A stretch of DNA of 64,000 nt from Alphaproteobacteria bacterium (GTDB lineage Bacteria; Pseudomonadota; Alphaproteobacteria; SHVV01), in contig OZ253470.1 in the NCBI GenBank assembly GCA_965261735.1, forward strand, positions 4,416,001 through 4,480,000, written 5' to 3'. Shown in pieces: positions 5,532 through 59,062 of the stretch. Under the pieces are notes generated by a model. That model made no database searches. It saw nothing but the letters and a program-made list of their open reading frames with translations, and had not been told where the DNA came from. Position 1 is the stretch's first letter; each line of letters begins with the position of its first letter. Both the position numbers and the translations under genes were made by a program.

Positions 5532-8130
5532 GACGGCTCCTCCGCCCGCGCAAGCAGGTCCGCCATTTTGTAGGTTACGCTGGTCGCGCCGAAGTCCGGC
5601 TCTTTCCCGAAGGGCTTGCGGACATAGCACGGCTGCTGCGAAAAGCCGTTTGCGACCGCTACAATGGCAAGGATGAAGCCATTCGGCGCATTCAGCGCCG
5701 TCAGGATTTCATTACGTGTGACGGTTACGGTGTCCGCGCCGGCGACCCGGCCCTTGACCTCGATGAACCGGAGATTGCCCGAGTTTGGATCGTGGCTTTC
5801 TATGTCGTAACCGATGCGCTCCCGGCTTACATCACGCGGCTTGAAACCAAGCAGACGTTCGGCAGCGAATACAGCTTCCATGGCAAGAAGTTCGATCGCG
5901 GCCCGTGCGTCCGCTGATGCTTCAACAAAACCGCTGACACTTGCCGATTGCTCGTTCTGCGTTTTCTTCAGAAGTCCGCCCGGAACCACCAGCGCACCGC
6001 CATGCACGGACGGCGGCAGCGCAGAAATCTCGCGCTCGCGCTGAAGCTCCGCAAGGCGACGTTTTAGGCGGTCGGCCAGTTCATTTGCGCGCGCCTCGGC
6101 CTGACGGGCGTTGAAACGCCCGCCCCCCTTGCCGGCGCGCTCCTGTGCCTTCAGGTCCTCGGCGCGGTGATCCCAATATACGATCTCCCTCTTGAGCCTA
6201 GCAGTAACCTCTTGTTCGACCTTTGCAATTTCCGCAAGGCGGCGCTTTTTCACCTCCTCCACATGCGACGGCACCAGAGTAGTGATGGCGTGCGCTATGA
6301 CGTGACTCTCCAGATCGCCCGTGAGCCAGTCTGCCTTCAGATGATCCTCAAGAAGGGCTCTCTCTTCGTCGCGTAGCGGTCGGTAATCGAGATAGGGCGC
6401 CGGGCCGCCGTCTCGCGTCGCGCCGTCTGCGTCGATTTCAATGAACTGGAGCCGCTGCGAGACAACCTGTTGCTGGCCGGTGCCGGTCATCCGACCATCC
6501 TGAACCCTGTGCTTAAGATAGAACAGCGCGCGGATGTCCTCGCTCTCATCGGTTTCGTTCAAGAGAACCGCTCCACGTTTCATTATGTCACGGTAGCGTT
6601 CAAGAACAAGATCCACTGTGGCATCCAGCAACGGATGTCCGGGACAAAGGTAGGCGGCAAGCGGTGGGCCACTGATGAATTCCTTTTCAAAGCAGGCGCG
6701 CTCGTAGCGTTCCAGCACAGGCTCGGTACGGCCGATCTGACGGTCGCGCTCGCGTATCGAGCCGGGCACGCGGGTGATCTCCCAGCGCCCGGTCTCGCGC
6801 CGGTGTATCTGGCCGCCAAACTGTTTGAACGCAGCCAGAAAGAAGCTCTGAATGTAATGGGGCTGAAGTCGCCGCGCCTCGGCCCGTTCCATTTCCTCGC
6901 GGATCGCCGCGACACTCGCGGCGGTCATGCTGTCGCGCACCAGTGCGCGTTGTTCCAGAAGGTCGAGTAGGTGTTTGTGATCTACCGCTTGATCTACCGC
7001 TTCGAACAACCGCTGCTTTACGTCGGGGCGTTCGCCGTAGCGGATCGCCTCGACAAGCAGATCACGCAACTCCGTACCCTGAAACAGGCGGCCCAGAACA
7101 TTATAGACGCGACCACCTAGGGTCGTACGTGCTGTTTCAAGCTTTTCGAGTAGGCGGGAATAAACCTCGCCCTCGCGAGTATCGCTGGCGACAAGGTTCC
7201 AAAGATGGCAAACCTCGGTTTGTCCGATGCGGTGAATACGCCCGAAGCGTTGCTCAAGTCTGTTCGGATTCCAGGGCAGATCGTAGTTCACCATCAGATG
7301 GGCGCGCTGAAGATTGATGCCTTCGCCCGCCGCGTCATTCGCGACCATGACCACCACGTCCTTGTCGTGGGTGAAAGACTCGACCGCCTTGCGCCGATCC
7401 TTGCGTCCAACGCCACCATGGATCACGACAACGGCTTCATGGCGTCCGAGCCGCGTTCGGATTTTGTCGGCAAGGTAATCCAACGTGTCGCGCGGCTCGG
7501 TGAAGATGATCAGCTTACGGCGGTTGCGAGCCTCATCAATCATAAGTGGATGATCGAGAATGGTGTTGAGCTGCGTCCATTTCGTGTCCACACCGGAACG
7601 GCGAAGGTCGCGCGCCTGTGTTTCAAGCTGGCGCAGCATCTCGATCTCGGTTTCCAGCTCGGGGATCGTGCGTGCCGCCGTCGCGCGGTCGAGTACGGCT
7701 TCTTCGCTCACCTCGACCTCTTCCTCGGTCGCCTCCTCGAGCTCTTTAGGATCGTATGCGACCTGCGAGTCGTCGGTCAGTTCACCCTGCGCGCCCGCAA
7801 CAGTCTGTCCGCGCGATACGAGACGAGCCTCGGCAAGGCGCTTCTCAAGGCGCTCCCGCCTGCGGCGCAGGCTCTCGTGAATAGCGGCGGGAGAGGATGC
7901 CAGCCGACGTTGCAGAATCTGGAGGGCGAAGCCGACATTCATTCTCTGCTTGTCATCGCCTTCCGCGAAGCGCTCGGCGCGGTTCATCTCTTCTCGAACG
8001 TAAGTAGTCACGGCAGCGTAGAGCGCGGCCTCCTGATCCGACAACTCGTATTCAGCGGTGTAAGCCCGCCGTTCCGGGAAAAGCGGACGTCCGTCGAACT
8101 TCAGAAGCTCTTCCTTCGTGAGGCGGCGCA
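5528..8130 (-). pseudogene. SNF2-family helicase with C-terminal DUF3883/NOV_C PD-(D/E)xK-type domain, 5'-truncated at IS256
   Basis: DAAGEGINLQ, NYDLPWNPNRLEQRFGRIHRIGQ, GYDIES...FIEVKGR; ATPase lobe 1 missing; first 29 aa of the listed ORF derive from the IS256 end. Confidence 0.85.
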
Positions 8131-38992: not shown

Positions 38993-40012
38993 ATGGATAT
39001 TACGACAATTGGGTTTGATCTGGCAAAGACGGTGTTCCAGGTTCACGGTGCTGATGGTGAGGGACGACCGGTACTACGGCGGAAGCTGCGCCGCGGGAAG
39101 GTGCTGGCGTTCTTCGCCGGATTGCCATCCTGTCTTGTCGGTATGGAAGCCTGTGCCTCTGCGCACTATTGGGCTCGGGAACTGCAAGCACACGGGCACA
39201 AAGTTCAGCTGATTCCGCCTCAATACGTTCGTCCCTTCGTCAAAACGAATAAGAACGACGCAGCGGATGCGGAAGCGATCTGTGAGGCAGTGACGCGTCC
39301 GACGATGCGCTTTGCACCGGCGAAAAGCGCCGAGCAGCAGTCGGTTCTGATGCTGCACCGGGCCCGAGAGCTGTTGGTCCGTCAACGCACGATGGTGATC
39401 AATGCGCTGCGCGGCCACTGTGCGGAGTTCGGACTGATCGTCGCTCAGGGGGCGTCGAAGGTGGAGGAACTGGTTGCCATTATCGAAGATCCCGGCGATG
39501 TGCGACTGCCGCCTCTGGCACGCGAGGCGCTTGGCTCTCTGGTTGAGCAGCTCCGCTCTGCTCAGGCCCGGATCAAGCAGCTGGAAGTGACGCTTTTGGC
39601 ATGGCACCGCTCCAACGAGGCGAACCGCCGTCTTGCGACGATCCCCGGCGTCGGTGTCATCACCGCGACGGCGCTGGTCGCGACGATCGGAGATGGCGCG
39701 CAGTTTCGCTCGGGCCGGCAGCTCTCGGCCTGGCTCGGTCTCGTGCCCCGACAACACTCGAGTGGCGGCAAGGACAGGCTGGGGCGGATCTCGAAGCGCG
39801 GGGATGGCTATATCAGGCGCTTGCTCGTGCATGGTGCGCGAAGCGTGCTGCGCTGGCGCCGCGCCAAGCCGGGCACGGGGCCTGGCTGGACCGACCGGCT
39901 CCTGGCGCGGCGGCCGACAAACGTCGTGCTGGTCGCCATGGCCAATAAGACAGCCCGCGTCGCCTGGGCACTGCTCAGATACGAGCGTATCTACCGACCG
40001 ACGCCCGCCTGA
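38993..40012 (+). CDS. IS110-family recombinase (DEDD + Tnp20)
   Basis: GFDLAK, GMEAC, KNDAADAEAI, GLVPRQHSSGGK. Confidence 0.95.
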   Translation: MDITTIGFDLAKTVFQVHGADGEGRPVLRRKLRRGKVLAFFAGLPSCLVGMEACASAHYWARELQAHGHKVQLIPPQYVRPFVKTNKNDAADAEAICEAVTRPTMRFAPAKSAEQQSVLMLHRARELLVRQRTMVINALRGHCAEFGLIVAQGASKVEELVAIIEDPGDVRLPPLAREALGSLVEQLRSAQARIKQLEVTLLAWHRSNEANRRLATIPGVGVITATALVATIGDGAQFRSGRQLSAWLGLVPRQHSSGGKDRLGRISKRGDGYIRRLLVHGARSVLRWRRAKPGTGPGWTDRLLARRPTNVVLVAMANKTARVAWALLRYERIYRPTPA

Positions 40013-49109: not shown

Positions 49110-50189
49110 GCGCATTCCGACGAAAGCAGCCACTGATTCCGATCCAAAACGGCCACTTTCCCGGATATCTCACGAGGCCATTTTGTATCGCTGGATTTGC
49201 GATCTACTGGGCGGGTCTGAGTGGCGGTGTGTCGATGTTGTGTTTTCTGTTGGTCCAAAGTGGGCAGGGCCGCGTAGCTGGGTTCGGAAAGGGATTGGAA
49301 GCTTCGCCTGCTGGGACGTCTTGGCCTTTTTCGGTTGTCGCAGAGGGGTTGGGACTATGGGGGCGCCAGAGCGGCGTGAGCCTTGAAGAACAGGGTTTTG
49401 CCGGGACAGGCGTCGGGCAGGGAGAGCTTGATGTCATTTTCGTTCGGCGTGGTCAACGTCGTTGGCGTTGAAGTTCTCGGCGATGGTCTTTCGCATGGAG
49501 GGCCCGTCGAAGTTGATTCTGTGGGAGTTGTGGACGATACGGTCGAGGATGGCGTCGGCGTAATCGACGAACAGCTTGTCGCCGGCGACATGGGTCTGGC
49601 GCATGGTCGGGGCGAGCCGGCCGCGCCAATCCCGGTAGAGATCGCAGAACCGGCTGTAGCCGTAACCGTCGCGATGAACGGCGCGGTATTCCTCCCACAA
49701 GAGCGACAGGGTCACGCCGGGCCGCTTCAACTCGCGATGCATCAGCGGCCAGTCGGGAAGCGGCCGGCGATCGGGCGAAACCGCCGGCAGCGGCGCGAAC
49801 AGCAGCCGTTCCAGCGCCTCGTCCGAAAGCCCCTCGGGCAGCGGCCAAGCCAGACCCGCGCGGCGCGCCCGGCGGAGATAATCGCCGACCGCCTGGCGGC
49901 CGATGTTCAAACCGACGGCAATCCGCCGCTTCGACAATCCGCCGGCATGCAGCCGTAGAACGTCGTGTATTTTACGCATGGGCAATCTCTCCCTGGGCAT
50001 CCTCGCTCCTGGAAGCCGGTCTCTCGTAGTCGGCCAGCTGCTTGCGAAGCGACGGCACCGGAGAACCGCCGCATACGCCCAGTTGGCGACGGGCACTCGT
50101 CGAGGCGGTGGAAGGGGTCGGCAAGTTCACTGCGAAGGCTATGATCGTCGGCTCCAGCGATCGTCCATCGCGCCGCCTTGACATCAACA
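49110..50189 (-). mobile_element. Internally deleted IS21-family element (istA-istB fusion ORF 49434-50000); ends approximate
   Basis: IstA start MRKIHDVLRL...GYSRFC...LFVDY joined to IstB end ADAILDRIVHNSHRI...GPSMRK; repeated TTCCGA...GCCACT units near 49110-49157. Confidence 0.8.
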
Positions 50190-50663
50190 CTGACAGCCTG
50201 TTCCTCGCGAGGCCGAATGGGGAATGCGGGGGAGGCTAGGGAGGTTCTGATGCAACCGATTTCGGGGCCGCGGCCCAAGTCCTGGTTAATTGTGTTGAGC
50301 CTGATGACCGTCCCACTGTTCGCGATGGTCTGCGCTTCCGATGCGCGCGCCGACACGCCAGTAGAGGTCGAGCAGGAAGTCGCCGAGGAAGCGGAGGTCG
50401 AGGTCGGGCCATCGGCCAGTGCTACGACCACACCGCTTATCCCCCGCAAGCTCCTGTTCGGCAACCCGGACAAGATAAACGTTCAGATCAGCCCGGACGG
50501 GCGTTTCCTGAGCTACGCCGCCCCGGTGGACGGGGTGCTCAACGTCTGGGTGGGGCCGGTGGACGACCCGGCGGCGGCCCGGCCCGTCACCCGGGACACG
50601 TTCGGGGGAATCGGCAACTACTTCTGGGCCGACGCCAGCGATCACATCGTGTGTGGACGCCCC

Positions 50664-50916
50664 CGTTGATGCAAGCAGTTTTTGGTCGGCTCGGTGCATG
50701 CGGTCAGGTGCTGTCGTGTGTCCGGCCTCTCTATGCGGCAGATGACACGCCGCGGGCCCGTATGGAGATACGCGGATTGGGTCCAAATCGGTTACGCGAG
50801 CTTGAAAGCTCTCCGTTCGGATGCTGGTTTTCCCAACCCGGTCTCGTTGACCTTTGCCCTTACCTGTCCTCCGTCGTGCCCACATCCCCGACGGCTTCCC
50901 GCACTTCGCCGTTCTC
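50664..50916 (-). ncRNA. Predicted bridge/seek RNA of element B
   Basis: Contains GTAACCGAT identical to the target flank and ACACACGA identical to the predicted donor junction. Confidence 0.7.
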
Positions 50917-51939
50917 TCAGGCGGTGGCGGGAGCCCGGTAGCTCTCCTTCTTCGTCAGTAGCGCCCAGACGATGCGCGCCATCCTGTTGGCCAGCGCCAC
51001 CGCGACGAGCATCCTCGGCTTGCGCGCCAGCATCCCGGCCAGCCAGGGGTCCGTCGTCACGCCGCGCCGAACCGCCCAGCGGACCACAGTCATCGCGCCT
51101 GTGATCAGCAGCCGTCTCAGATCGCGCTGGCCCATCTTCGATATCTTGCCCAGCTTCGGCTTGCCGCCGGTCGTGTGCTGGCGCGGCACGAGGCCGAGCC
51201 AAGCGGAGAAGTCGCGGCCGCGCCGGAAACTCTCCATCGGCGGTGCGAAGGCCTGGATTGCCATCGCGCTGATCGGCCCGATCCCCGGCACGCTCATCAG
51301 GCGCCTCGCCTCCTCATCCTGCCGTGCTCTCACGTGGACCTCCCTCTCCAGGCCCGCAATCTTCGCATCGAGGCCGGCGATCTGCTCAAGCAGAAGGCCG
51401 GCCAGCTCGCGGACCGCTTCCGGCAACCTCGAAGCCGGTCCCTCAAGCGCCGAGGCCAGCCGGCCGACATGAGCCGGCCCCTGCGGGGCAATGACACCGA
51501 ACTCCGCTAGATGGCCGCGCAGCGCATTAATCGTCTGGGTGCGCTGGCGCACCAGAAGATCGCGCGTCCGGAACAGCATGCCCCGAGCCTGCTGTTCCTC
51601 CGTCTTCACAGCCACAAAGCGCATGGTCGGCCGCGACGACGCCTCGCAGATCGCCTCCGCATCCGACGCGTCGTTCTTTTGCCGCTTGACGTACGCTTTG
51701 ACGTAGATCGGTGGGACCAGTCGCACCGCATGGCCGAGACTGCCGATCTCCCGGCCCCAATGGTGCGCGCCGCCGCACGCCTCCATCGCCACCGTGCAGC
51801 GTGGCTGCGCAGCCACAAAGTCCAACAGCTTCGCCCGGCTCAGCTTCTTGCGGAACGCAACCGACCCATCCGCCCGCGCACCGTGCAGCTGAAAGCTGTT
51901 CTTCGCCAGATCGATCCCGATCATGTGAACCTGTTCCAT
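50917..51939 (-). CDS. IS110-family recombinase
   Basis: GIDLAK, AMEAC, KNDASDAEAI, GLVPRQHTTGGK. Confidence 0.95.
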   Translation of the reverse strand: MEQVHMIGIDLAKNSFQLHGARADGSVAFRKKLSRAKLLDFVAAQPRCTVAMEACGGAHHWGREIGSLGHAVRLVPPIYVKAYVKRQKNDASDAEAICEASSRPTMRFVAVKTEEQQARGMLFRTRDLLVRQRTQTINALRGHLAEFGVIAPQGPAHVGRLASALEGPASRLPEAVRELAGLLLEQIAGLDAKIAGLEREVHVRARQDEEARRLMSVPGIGPISAMAIQAFAPPMESFRRGRDFSAWLGLVPRQHTTGGKPKLGKISKMGQRDLRRLLITGAMTVVRWAVRRGVTTDPWLAGMLARKPRMLVAVALANRMARIVWALLTKKESYRAPATA

Positions 51940-53899
51940 GGACGCCCCCTTCCTCGCTTGGCGTTAACAACACCGCCAACCTGGCACATCGCGATGCCGT
52001 CGGGAGGGGCGTCCACCCCATCGGTTACCTCATGGACTGGCAAGGCGACGAGAACGCGCATCTCTATTCCGTCGAATTGGATACCGGCGCGATCTGGGAC
52101 TTGACCCCAATGGTCGGCGCGCGTGCGGTCATCGTGGGGAGCAGCCCCAAGTTCCCCAACGAGCTGCTTGTGGGTCTGAACGGCCGCGACCCCCGATACA
52201 ACGATATCTATCGGATCAACGTCAGAACCGGGGAAAGGCGGCTGGTGCAGGTGAACGACCAGTTCGCCGGCTTCCTCATCGATGACGATTTCAACATTCG
52301 CTTCGCCAGCCGTCCCACCAAGGACGGGGGCAGCGAACTGCTGCGCTCCACCGCTGGCGGCGGCTGGGAGTCGTTTATCAAATTCCCGCTGGAAGATATC
52401 GAGACCAGCAAGATCTTCGGGTTCGACCGGACGGGGCGGGTCCTGTATCTGGCGGACAACCGGGGGCGGGATACCTCCGCCCTTACCGCCTTCAACCTGG
52501 ACACCGGGGAACAGACCGTCATCGCTGCCGACGCCAGGGCCGATGTGCACGGCGTGATGGCGCACCCTACCGAAAGGACCCTCCAGGCCGTCGACTTCAT
52601 CTATGAACGCAGGGAGTACCGCATTTTGGACGACTCCATCGCCCCCGAAATGGAGTACTTGCGAACGGTGGCCGTTGGCGACTTTCAGGTTATCAGCCGC
52701 ACCCTGGACGACAGCCGCTGGATCGTGGTCTACCCGGTGGATGACGGGCCGGCGCGCTACTACAGCTATGACCGGGCCAGGAAAGAGGCGACGTTCCTGT
52801 TCACGCACGCGAAAGAGTTGGAGGGGCTACCGCTGGCCAAATTGCACTCGGTCGTTATCAAGTCGCGCGACGGGCTGGACCTGGTGGGTTACTACATGCT
52901 GCCGGTGGAGAGCGACAAGGATGGCTCGGGGCGTCCGGACCATCCCTTACCGATGGTATTGCATGTGCATGGCGGCCCCCATGAGCGGGTAGAGTGGAAC
53001 TATTGTCCGTTGTGCCAACTCCTGGCCAACCGGGACTACGCCGTGTTGACCGTAAACTTCCGGGGCTCTACCGGGTTCGGCAAGGCGTTCGTCAACGCCG
53101 CCAACCTGGAGTGGGGCGGCAAGATGCACGACGACCTGATCGACGCCGTGCAGTGGGCCATCGAGCAGGGGATCGCCGACCCGCAACGGGTGGCGATTTA
53201 TGGGGCCAGCTACGGCGGCTACGCCACTCTGGTGGGCCTGACCCTTACCCCGGACACCTTCGCCTGCGGCGTGGACATCGTCGGCCCTTCGAACCTGGTT
53301 ACCCTGCTCAGCAGCATTCCACCGTACTGGGAGCCGGCGATCGAGCGGATGGTCCGTCAGATCGGCGACCACCGCACCGAGGCGGGCCGGGCCTTCCTGA
53401 CCGAGCGTTCCCCGCTTACGCACGTCGAACGCATCAGCAAGCCCCTGCTCATCGGCCACGGCGCCCATGATCCTCGGGTCAAGCAAGCCGAGGCGGAGCA
53501 AATCGTCCGGGCCATGCTGGACAGGAACCTCCCGGTCACTGCCGTCCTCTATCCCGACGAAGGGCACGGCTTCAATCGGCCCGAAAACACACTCTCCTTC
53601 CTGGCAGTAGCGGAAGCCTTCCTGGCCGAGTGTTTGGGAGGACGGCACGAACCGGTGGGGGACGACTTCGCGGGCTCGTCCATCATCGTGCCGGTCGGGG
53701 CGGAGCATATTCCAGGCCTCGTGGAAGCCCTCGAATAGCGACCGGTGGCAAGACGTGATTGGGCGAGAAACGCGGCGCTTGCCCCACGGCTTCGCAATGG
53801 AAGACGGGTCGGTCTCCGTTGCGCGGCAGCTCACCGCTTGTGCCGTCCTGCCCGGTGTCATAATCCGGAGGCCAGGGCTCTCGCGTCTACGCGTGGATC

Positions 53900-58256: not shown

Positions 58257-59062
58257 GGCATTGTCACGTTAACAGCGTGGCTTCGGCACGGCCGGTGCTT
58301 TAGCATCTCTGGATGTGCAAGATATCCTACCGTCGTCACCGCTTTCCACCGGTCATCATCCAGCATGCCGTCTGGCTCTATTGCCGTTTCACGCTGAGCT
58401 ATCGGGACGTTGATGACCTGCTTGCCGAGCGTGGTCTCGACATCTCGTATGAGACAGTTCGAAGATGGGTCTTGAAATTCGGTCGGGCCTATGCGCGGCG
58501 GATTCAACGTCGGCGGCCACGACCGACCGAACGCTGGCACCTGGACGAGATGGTCGTCGTAATTCGAGGGAGGCAGTTCTATCTCTGGCGTGCCGTGGAC
58601 AGTGAGGGCGAAGTCCTGGATTTCCTGGTTCAATCCCGCAGGAACGCTCGGGCGGCAATTCGGCTGATGCGGAAACTCTTGAAGAAGCAGGGCTTCGCGC
58701 CGGCGACGATTGTAACCGATAAACTCCGCTCCTACGGCACCGCGATCCGTTTGCTTGCCCTCTCGGCTCAGCATGAGCAAGGCCTGCGAAAGAACAATCG
58801 GGCAGAAAATTCACATCAGCCGGTGCGACGACGAGAGCGAAAGATGCAGCGGTTCAAATCGCCCGCGTCCGCGCAGCGGTTCCTCGCCGTCCATGCGACC
58901 GTCTACAACCTCTTCAACGTCCAACGCCATCTGGTCTCCCGCCGAACACTCCGCCAATTCCGCGGCGACGCGATGAGACAGTGGCGGCAAGTGACGACCG
59001 TTGCATAATCTCCGGCGTCGGCGCCCACAAGCTGGTTACACGGTGGTTAACGTGACAACGCC
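58257..59062 (+). mobile_element. IS6-family element, complete (transposase 58313-59008)
   Basis: TIR GGC(A/G)TTGTCACGTTAAC; WHLDEM, VTDK, NNRAENSH. Confidence 0.93.

Follow-up and report, generated by a model that had tools for sequence, protein, structure and literature searches.

A complete IS1111-group insertion sequence with a predicted guide RNA that matches its own target and donor

A 64,000-nucleotide (nt) stretch of alphaproteobacterial DNA (contig OZ253470.1, positions 4,416,001 to 4,480,000; this whole stretch is called the window below) carries an insertion sequence within a gene for an S9 peptidase. Is the choice of this site written into the non-coding end of the element itself? 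The reading that we favor, with a probability of about 0.93, is that this is a complete and recently active element of the IS1111 group whose recombinase is directed by a structured RNA from the 267-bp region downstream of its gene. The original prediction for this locus had proposed a complete set of recombinase, guide and target with a specificity that might be new. The set is supported by the data below; at most the specificity is new, the mechanism and the threonine variant of the recombinase having been published. All coordinates are positions in the window and the element is read on the minus strand.

The element, its ends and its recombinase

The genome, a single 5.03-Mb contig with 66% G+C, contains 14 copies of the element at 99.4-100% identity, five copies of an 81-82% identical relative (“B”) and several fragments. 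Comparison of the 14 copies set the ends of the 1372-bp element at 50650 and 52021. Left junctions invariably read ...CG-ATGGGG, and right junctions invariably read ...CACACA-CG followed by variable sequence. Because CG is all that remains constant at the right junction, it is the duplicated core, and AT represents the first two bases of the element. The right flank of the window copy happens to begin with AT, so the repeat had appeared as CGAT in the original prediction, which had placed the element at 50645..52028; the element is real, but its bounds and core had to be redrawn. In the 82% relative the core at both junctions is TG instead of CG.

The uninterrupted site was found in contigs from two public runs, one of DNA type (X15) and one from an RNA library (X1). 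These contigs jump exactly 1374 nt across the element (50640/50644 to 52015/52019), joining ...GATCAC directly to ATCGGTTACC... and giving the empty site GATCACATCGGTTACC that had been reconstructed from the window. The skip corresponds to the 1372-bp element plus one CG. The two parts of the S9 peptidase run in frame together in these contigs, and the proposed splitting of this gene was further confirmed by a Pfam match of the downstream part (Table 1). Empty and occupied forms are both present in public data, which demonstrates insertion, not excision.

Two other approaches to the empty site were uninformative. When deletions of 1370, 1372, 1374 and 1376 nt were compared for restoring an open reading frame (ORF) at the 14 sites, 1374 nt gave the longest spanning frame at 6 sites (among them the window copy, with a frame of 667 amino acids), another size did so at 7 and none at 1; a genome of 66% G+C has long open frames in many frames, and the test is uninformative for this reason. 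Empty sites of two further copies were sought in 30 relatives, where the best homologue was just 77% identical and diverged at the site.

The anatomy is that of the IS1111 group. The sub-terminal inverted repeats are 11 bp long, within the 7-17 bp with short terminal extensions that characterize the group, and of the two non-coding regions the one downstream of the recombinase gene is the longer (267 bp, compared to 82 bp upstream). Insertion is sequence- and orientation-specific with a short core at both junctions. These data support assignment of the element to the IS1111 group of IS110-family insertion sequences, and its position inside the S9 peptidase gene.

The 340-residue recombinase has an N-terminal RuvC-like DEDD domain (PF01548, DEDD_Tnp_IS110; E 1.7e-15) and a C-terminal Tnp domain (PF02371, Transposase_20; E 3.8e-22), and it scored 321.2 bits against the NCBIfam equivalog NF033542, “IS110 family RNA-guided transposase”, which has a cut-off of 140. 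Using HMMER it was aligned to the solved IS621 chain (E 4.9e-10) and also to ISCro4, and residues D10, E53, D90 and D93 fall on the DEDD columns of both chains. Judged by its sequence, the protein is a genuine member of the IS110-family RNA-guided transposases. In the motif GLVPRQHTTG, T257-G258 aligned with the S-G of ...YESGSS... in IS621; this S-G is S241-G242 in the published account of that enzyme (PMC11208158), from which we infer a two-residue offset between chain and native numbering. Threonine at the nucleophile position is not new but a documented IS1111 variation: as described by Siddiquee et al. 2024 (PMC11187229), transposases of this group carry SG or TG at the motif GL-P----S(t)G. 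A regular expression run over the 80 relatives introduced below found T-G in 66 and S-G in 4, while the motif was absent from 9 and the match was spurious in 1.

The motif contrast drawn in the original prediction was recovered, with HTTGG at residues 255-259 of this recombinase and HSSGG, within GLVPRQHSSGG, in a second IS110-family ORF near 39737 on the plus strand (the “element A” of that prediction). Separately, a 217-nt stretch of the recombinase gene has ten genomic matches at 72% identity, suggesting that the genome holds a further multi-copy element of the IS110 family.

Guide segments and the sites that they match

When the window element (A from here on) was aligned with relative B, a conserved scaffold was seen in which four short blocks change. 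On the minus strand the right target guide block lies 5' of the left target guide, which is the IS1111-type order. The two guides form the two sides of an internal loop between a basal stem and an apical hairpin, and they are complementary to opposite strands of the target, as expected of a bridge RNA or seekRNA. The candidate donor segments are located directly 5' and 3' of a GGCC/GGCC stem. In A, the left guide GTAACCGAT corresponds to the target GTAAC-CG, the right guide CCGAACG to CG-TTCGG and the left donor guide ACACACGAC to CACACA-CG; this last segment matches the predicted circle junction, made up of the right end CACACA, the core and the first base of the left end. The equivalent pairs in copies B1-4 are AAAAATGAT with AAAAA-TG, GTGGTACA with TG-TACCAC and ACAGATGAC with CACAGA-TG, and those in B5 are AAAATTGAT with AAAAT-TG and GGGTCA with TG-ACCC, the left donor guide being as in B1-4. 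The segment CUCCAU is complementary to the left-end start ATGGAG, and to ATGGGG in A with one G-U pair. Four of the B copies (contig G000:C1, 439467, 4173238, 682918(-) and 1608375(-)) have near-identical flanks, with 0-3 differences over 38 nt on each side, and they are probably passengers of a larger repeat rather than four independent insertions.

All strings cited in the original prediction were present at their positions, including CCAT at 50762-50765, CATC at 50820-50823 and the hairpin at 50797-50812. It had described a nine-of-nine match between guide and target. On the minus strand, GTAACCGAT indeed occurs at 50787-50795 and at 52020-52028, and the window contains 4 copies compared to 0.24 expected, a number that none of 100 shuffles reached. 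The eight-of-eight donor-junction match, ACACACGA at 50714-50721 and at the right junction (50647-50654), is also present but is not above chance when taken alone (2 copies compared to 1.19 expected; 33 of 100 shuffles reach 2). As for CATC, put forward as the complement of the right half of the target, it falls within the 5' edge of the right-guide block, but the proposed pairing is out of register and the true guide is at 50814-50820.

Unoccupied GTAACCGAT sites are found on the plus strand at 5807-5815 and 58712-58720, the latter within a four-copy repeat (cgacgatt GTAACCGAT aaactccg). Genome-wide there was no enrichment of this string: its 40 sites comprise 16 occurrences of the guide itself, 5 left junctions, 4 in another repeat and 15 singletons, a result similar to that for other dinucleotide extensions of GTAACCG. 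The string GTAACCGATGGGG (left flank, core and the first 6 bases of the left end) also occurs without the rest of the element at minus-strand offsets 4592403 and 4702817 of G000:C1, where it could be a chance match or a left-end scar.

The guide segments are identical in all 14 copies of A, and the sites of these copies resemble one another, as had been expected. The 12 distinct left flanks read G (10/12), C/T (10/12), A (12/12), A (11/12) and C (12/12), followed by CG. The guide GUAAC agrees with this consensus, a U-G wobble being formed at those sites that have C in the top strand. Among the right flanks 13 are distinct, and they begin with TTCG (5), GTTCG (2), GTTG (1), A (4, of which 3 are AT) or GGCG (1); 7 of the 13 therefore read (G)TTCG, which is the prediction of the right guide. 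In public runs, contigs of other copies share the window sequence up to 52028 (through GTAAC-CG) and diverge beyond it, and two runs from different studies contain ...CCGAA adjoining the CG before 50648, which corresponds to the CG-TTCGG right flank expected from the right guide. The sequences from public runs are contigs throughout, which show neither transcription nor RNA ends.

To follow the guides through the family we used the best 80 of 537 confirmed loci, with proteins 66-99% identical and nearly all from metagenome-assembled genomes (MAGs) of Alphaproteobacteria, Binatia, Longimicrobiales and others. Together with three types from the element's own genome, these gave 83 sequences, and both ends could be delimited by repeat motifs in 72. 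The eleven with no recognizable end (L021, L028, L029, L031, L032, L046, L059, L061, L093, L094 and L100) were left out, as were L058, L068 and L098, which have two possible right ends each. The final set consisted of 69 elements, among which 48 non-coding regions and 42 guide pairs were distinct, and each pair was represented once.

As shown by permutation, each guide tracks its own partner. Of 210 positions compared between left guides and the left flanks of the same elements, 192 agreed, compared to 60.1 +/- 7.8 when flanks were permuted among the 42 guide pairs. For the right guide, the longest exact runs between its complement and the core plus right flank summed to 274 (mean 6.5), compared to 129.9 +/- 7.0. 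In the left donor guide three bases vary, and these agreed with the element's own right end at 125 of 126 positions, compared to 73.3 +/- 4.8. None of 5000 permutations reached the observed value of any of the three statistics. The target-guide signal connects the DNA that flanks the element with a hypervariable block that the element itself carries. These relatives are a case of natural reprogramming: across 42 guide pairs, the guide segments vary in step with the flanks and with the right end of the element. The joint change of guide and target that the original prediction called for is seen here in nature.

In one X15 contig, 50729-50824 (the left target guide and CCAU) is replaced while both sides match, and this looks like a relative with other guides on the same scaffold. 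A handshake-type covariation, linking the left flank to the base that follows the core complement of the right guide on its 3' side, was inconsistent by eye and was dropped.

The RNA scaffold, its proposed action and other explanations

A consensus structure was derived with RNAalifold from 39 of the 42 representatives (L042, L043 and L097 were omitted as near-duplicates). It has 30 pairs in 7 helices, and 98.8% of the cells are paired, compared to 29-47% when the 3' partners were slid. Eight pairs have changes on both sides, which none of 500 shuffles reached. One pair of the apical hairpin (helix 4) is AU in 15 sequences, GC in 12, UA in 5, GU in 2 and CG in 1, and G-U substitutions are seen elsewhere in the scaffold (GC:28/GU:11 at one pair, UA:23/UG:14 at another). 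The placement of the matching segments in loops rather than stems, on which the original prediction depended, holds in this structure with its compensatory changes. Coordinates are collected in Table 1.

It is proposed, by analogy with the family, that the non-coding region is transcribed and that its RNA binds a recombinase tetramer. In the target loop, the 5' side (CAUCCGAACGG) would pair with the core and right flank on the top strand (CG-TTCGG), the 3' side (GUAACCG-AU) would pair with the left flank and core on the bottom strand (GTAAC-CG), and a hairpin lies between the two sides. The donor junction of the circle, CACACA-CG-ATGG, would be recognized by a second module, in which ACACACGAC would serve as the left and CCAU as the right donor guide; the predicted junction of the circle reads ...GTCCACACA-CG-ATGGGGTGGAC. 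Recombination at the shared CG core would insert the circle in one orientation and leave CG at both junctions. T257, found where IS621 has its catalytic serine, may form the covalent 5' link beside the core. The action of the guide as RNA, the covalent threonine intermediate and the circle with its junction promoter are all extended to this element from its family.

A conserved TTGCAT, located 19 nt from the right terminus, is a possible -35 box. In the circle it would lie 17 nt upstream of CACGAT (CA, CG and AT brought together), and a junction promoter that is complete only in the circle is plausible on this arrangement. Junction promoters have been reported for the IS110 family (PMC11208158, as described there). 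The joint of the circle was not reported in four public runs; contigs would seldom reveal one, so this does not indicate its absence.

Several observations weigh against a directing RNA. The right flank of the window copy fits the right guide at just 4 of 7 positions, and the permutation tests ignore relatedness among the elements. The CCAU-ATGG donor pairing would be beyond the reach of covariation, both partners being near-invariant. No covarying helix closing the donor module was found; this agrees with the description of IS1111 donor nucleotides as often sitting in a multiloop (PMC11208160). A single-sequence minimum-free-energy fold of the 267-nt region was long-range and partly paired the guides, and it was replaced by the alignment-based structure. 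No Rfam 15 family matched the non-coding region at E <= 10, which does not speak against function given that Rfam may hold no model of an IS1111 bridge RNA, and a scan of 50000-52600 returned just two chance matches, both within the ORF. A sigma-70 promoter scan of the linear element gave 0 sites. Contigs from RNA libraries cover 50702-50989, but contigs do not reveal whether a transcript exists, where it ends or from which strand it comes, and these libraries may include carried-over DNA. Contig depth over the non-coding region was not used as evidence of expression, as contigs give no ranking of the parts of a gene and a DNA run has the same peaks.

It could be speculated that the guides act as single-stranded DNA in the end of the element, in the manner of the sub-terminal hairpins of IS200/IS605, and that no RNA is involved. 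The covariation of guides and flanks is silent on RNA versus DNA, and the role of RNA is here predicted from sequence, with no promoter in the linear element and contigs as the only data from RNA libraries. On the other hand, the protein is an IS110-family DEDD/Tnp recombinase and not an HUH transposase, the G-U substitutions in the scaffold are of RNA type, and four IS1111 relatives and one IS110 relative are described as needing, and co-purifying with, RNA from the non-coding region (PMC11187229). This explanation is therefore very improbable. We give slightly less credence still to the idea that the matches are passive, produced by chance or by copying of a flank into the element in a past recombination, and direct nothing. 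It would suit ACACACGA, whose recurrence was reached in 33 of 100 shuffles; however, the guides are at fixed scaffold positions, one sense and the other antisense, and their covariation with flanks in 42 variants was equalled in 0 of 5000 permutations. Moreover, the guides are identical in all 14 copies, and the 12 different left flanks of these copies have the guide-matching bases in common, which is the opposite of flank copying. The anatomy, the site specificity, the empty site and the covariation of guides with flanks and within the structure were directly observed, and we continue to favor the RNA-directed recombinase.

Another possibility is that the element is guided by a bridge RNA but that the window copy is a dead end, which may be unable to excise as its right flank misfits the right guide. 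Published work on the family, as described, holds that a donor must be flanked by the correct target, and the flank here is ATGTGAT where the guide predicts TTCGGAT (4/7 positions). The ORF, both ends and all guides are nevertheless intact, and the copy is 99.4-100% identical to 13 others. Empty and occupied forms coexist in public data, although this is evidence of insertion and not of excision. A dead end is conceivable, and on balance we doubt it.

A bolder reading is that the clade is one scaffold rewritten at least 42 times, with variants aimed at siblings and with the AU of the left guide compensating for a missing right-guide match. We put this forward tentatively, as something that is rather unlikely in full. 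No description of sibling targeting or AU compensation was found in the portions of the literature on these elements that were available. The two extra bases of the left guide, AU, are the first two bases of the element. Four of the 13 distinct right flanks have no right-guide match and all begin with A (3 with AT), which extends left-guide pairing into AU; AT after the core gives the nine-of-nine pairing that had been noticed originally. A post-hoc binomial calculation with P(A) ~0.17 gave p ~0.004 for 4 of 5. The left guide may dominate capture, or a handshake-like contact may form on its side.

Three relatives are inserted in siblings at guide-matched sites, which suggests competition between related elements. 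L022:1-2420 (97% protein identity) is nested in a sibling, with a left flank matching element positions 561-1169 and a right flank matching 1170-1368; its guides (GCAAA-CG / CG-GTCAA) match a conserved site just 5' of the sibling's target-loop stem, in the bridge-RNA region. L051 and L091 are inserted in the right sub-terminal repeat of siblings, where the left flank matches the sibling up to 1364 and the outer flanks differ, and their guides match GGGGG-CG-TCCATAG. In L092, three tandem copies of the element's last ~125 nt (positions 1250-1372) follow the element.

Table 1. Features of the element and its insertion site, in window positions
Feature	Position	Strand	Basis
Complete IS1111-group element, 1372 bp	50650..52021	-	14 genomic copies and empty-site contigs
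Recombinase gene, 340 amino acids	50917..51939	-	Pfam, NCBIfam, IS621/ISCro4 alignment
Left end, non-coding, 82 bp, begins ATGGGG	51940..52021	-	sequence
Left sub-terminal inverted repeat GTGGACGCCCC, 5 nt from terminus	52006..52016	-	sequence
Left copy of CG core	52022..52023	-	constant across 14 copies, both junctions
Left target flank GTAAC, fits left target guide	52024..52028	-	contigs of other copies diverge past 52028
3' non-coding region, 267 bp, predicted bridge/seek RNA gene	50650..50916	-	alignment and structure analysis
Helix 1, small 5' hairpin GGUC-AACGA-GACC, invariant pairs	50840..50852	-	consensus structure
Helix 2, target-loop basal stem, 5' strand, pairs with 50774-50781	50832..50839	-	8 pairs, 5 double-changed
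Right target guide block CAUCCGAACGG	50813..50823	-	hypervariable, tracks right flanks
Right target guide CCGAACG, complementary to top strand CG-TTCGG	50814..50820	-	within block CAUCCGAACGG
Helix 4, apical hairpin AGAGC-UUUCAA-GCUCG between target guides	50797..50812	-	consensus structure
Left target guide GUAACCGAU (GUAAC + CG + AU), top-strand sense, would pair with bottom strand	50787..50795	-	guide-flank covariation
Helix 2, target-loop basal stem, 3' strand	50774..50781	-	consensus structure
Putative right donor guide CCAU, complementary to first four bases of left end, ATGG	50762..50765	-	invariant in 39/39 aligned relatives
Helices 5 and 6, donor-module scaffold: stem GGCC/GGCC, 50755-50758 with 50724-50727	50724..50758	-	consensus structure
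Hairpin GCGGC...GCCGC inside GGCC/GGCC stem	50735..50753	-	consensus structure
Left donor guide ACACACGAC (ACACA + CG + AC)	50713..50721	-	covaries with own right end
Conserved TTGCAT, possible -35 box	50669..50674	-	sequence and conservation (GCTTGC near-invariant)
Right sub-terminal inverted repeat GGGGCGTCCAC, then ACA; 3 nt from terminus	50653..50663	-	sequence
Right copy of CG core	50648..50649	-	constant across 14 copies
Right target flank ATGTGATC, fits right target guide poorly (4/7)	50640..50647	-	guide-flank comparison
Upstream ORF, N-terminal part of interrupted S9 peptidase, putative start	50178..50649	+	in-frame join in empty-site contigs
C-terminal part of interrupted S9 peptidase	52022..53738	+	Pfam Peptidase_S9, E 7e-43

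Relation to known guided elements

The class of mechanism and the threonine variant are already published, and no new mechanism is revealed here; what appears to be new is this member, its specificity and a large natural series of reprogrammed relatives. The locus provides a fully delimited natural set of recombinase, guide, target and donor for an IS1111-type system, accompanied by dozens of naturally reprogrammed relatives (recombinases 66-99% identical) on one conserved RNA scaffold. The set is useful for mapping the programmable positions of the scaffold in the less-studied IS1111 branch, and for work on a recombinase with a putative threonine nucleophile.

Elements of the IS200/IS605 type rely on pairing of DNA with DNA and on an HUH enzyme as transposase, whereas the present protein is a DEDD/Tnp recombinase. 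The resemblance is that short sequences located at their ends also specify the target by base pairing; these elements are mentioned in PMC11208160.

The bridge RNA of IS621, as presented in PMC11208160 and by Hiraizumi et al. 2024 (PMC11208158), follows the same two-module logic as predicted here, with a target loop whose left and right guides pair with the bottom and the top strand, respectively, and a donor module that also has a left and a right guide. In both elements, target and donor have a 2-nt core in common over which the guides extend, and the active site is of the composite RuvC-Tnp type. In contrast to IS621 as described there, whose RNA is in the left end, the predicted RNA is here in the right end. 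Its target loop has the right guide first, then the hairpin and then the left guide, the reverse of the IS621 order, and the core is CG (TG in relatives) instead of CT. The present element also has long sub-terminal repeats, threonine in place of Ser241, and donor segments that lie on either side of a stem with no closing helix around them.

A close likeness is to the IS1111 seekRNA elements ISEc11, ISKpn4, ISPst6 and ISPa11 (PMC11187229). According to their published descriptions they too have a recombinase of ~340 amino acids with DEDD and PF02371 domains, sub-terminal inverted repeats and a long non-coding region downstream of the gene, and their seekRNAs also contain two short segments that match the target, the one complementary to the top strand lying 5' of the one complementary to the bottom strand. 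More broadly, for 93% of IS1111 elements a bridge RNA has been predicted within the right end, by the account of Durrant et al. 2024 (PMC11208160). Compared to the four elements as described, the present one differs in its target, GTAAC-CG-TTCGG, and in its hosts, which are uncultured Alphaproteobacteria and other MAGs. Between ISEc11 and ISXne4, targeting is described as having been naturally re-directed by replacement of guide bases on a conserved stem (PMC11187229), as it has been among the relatives of the element studied here.

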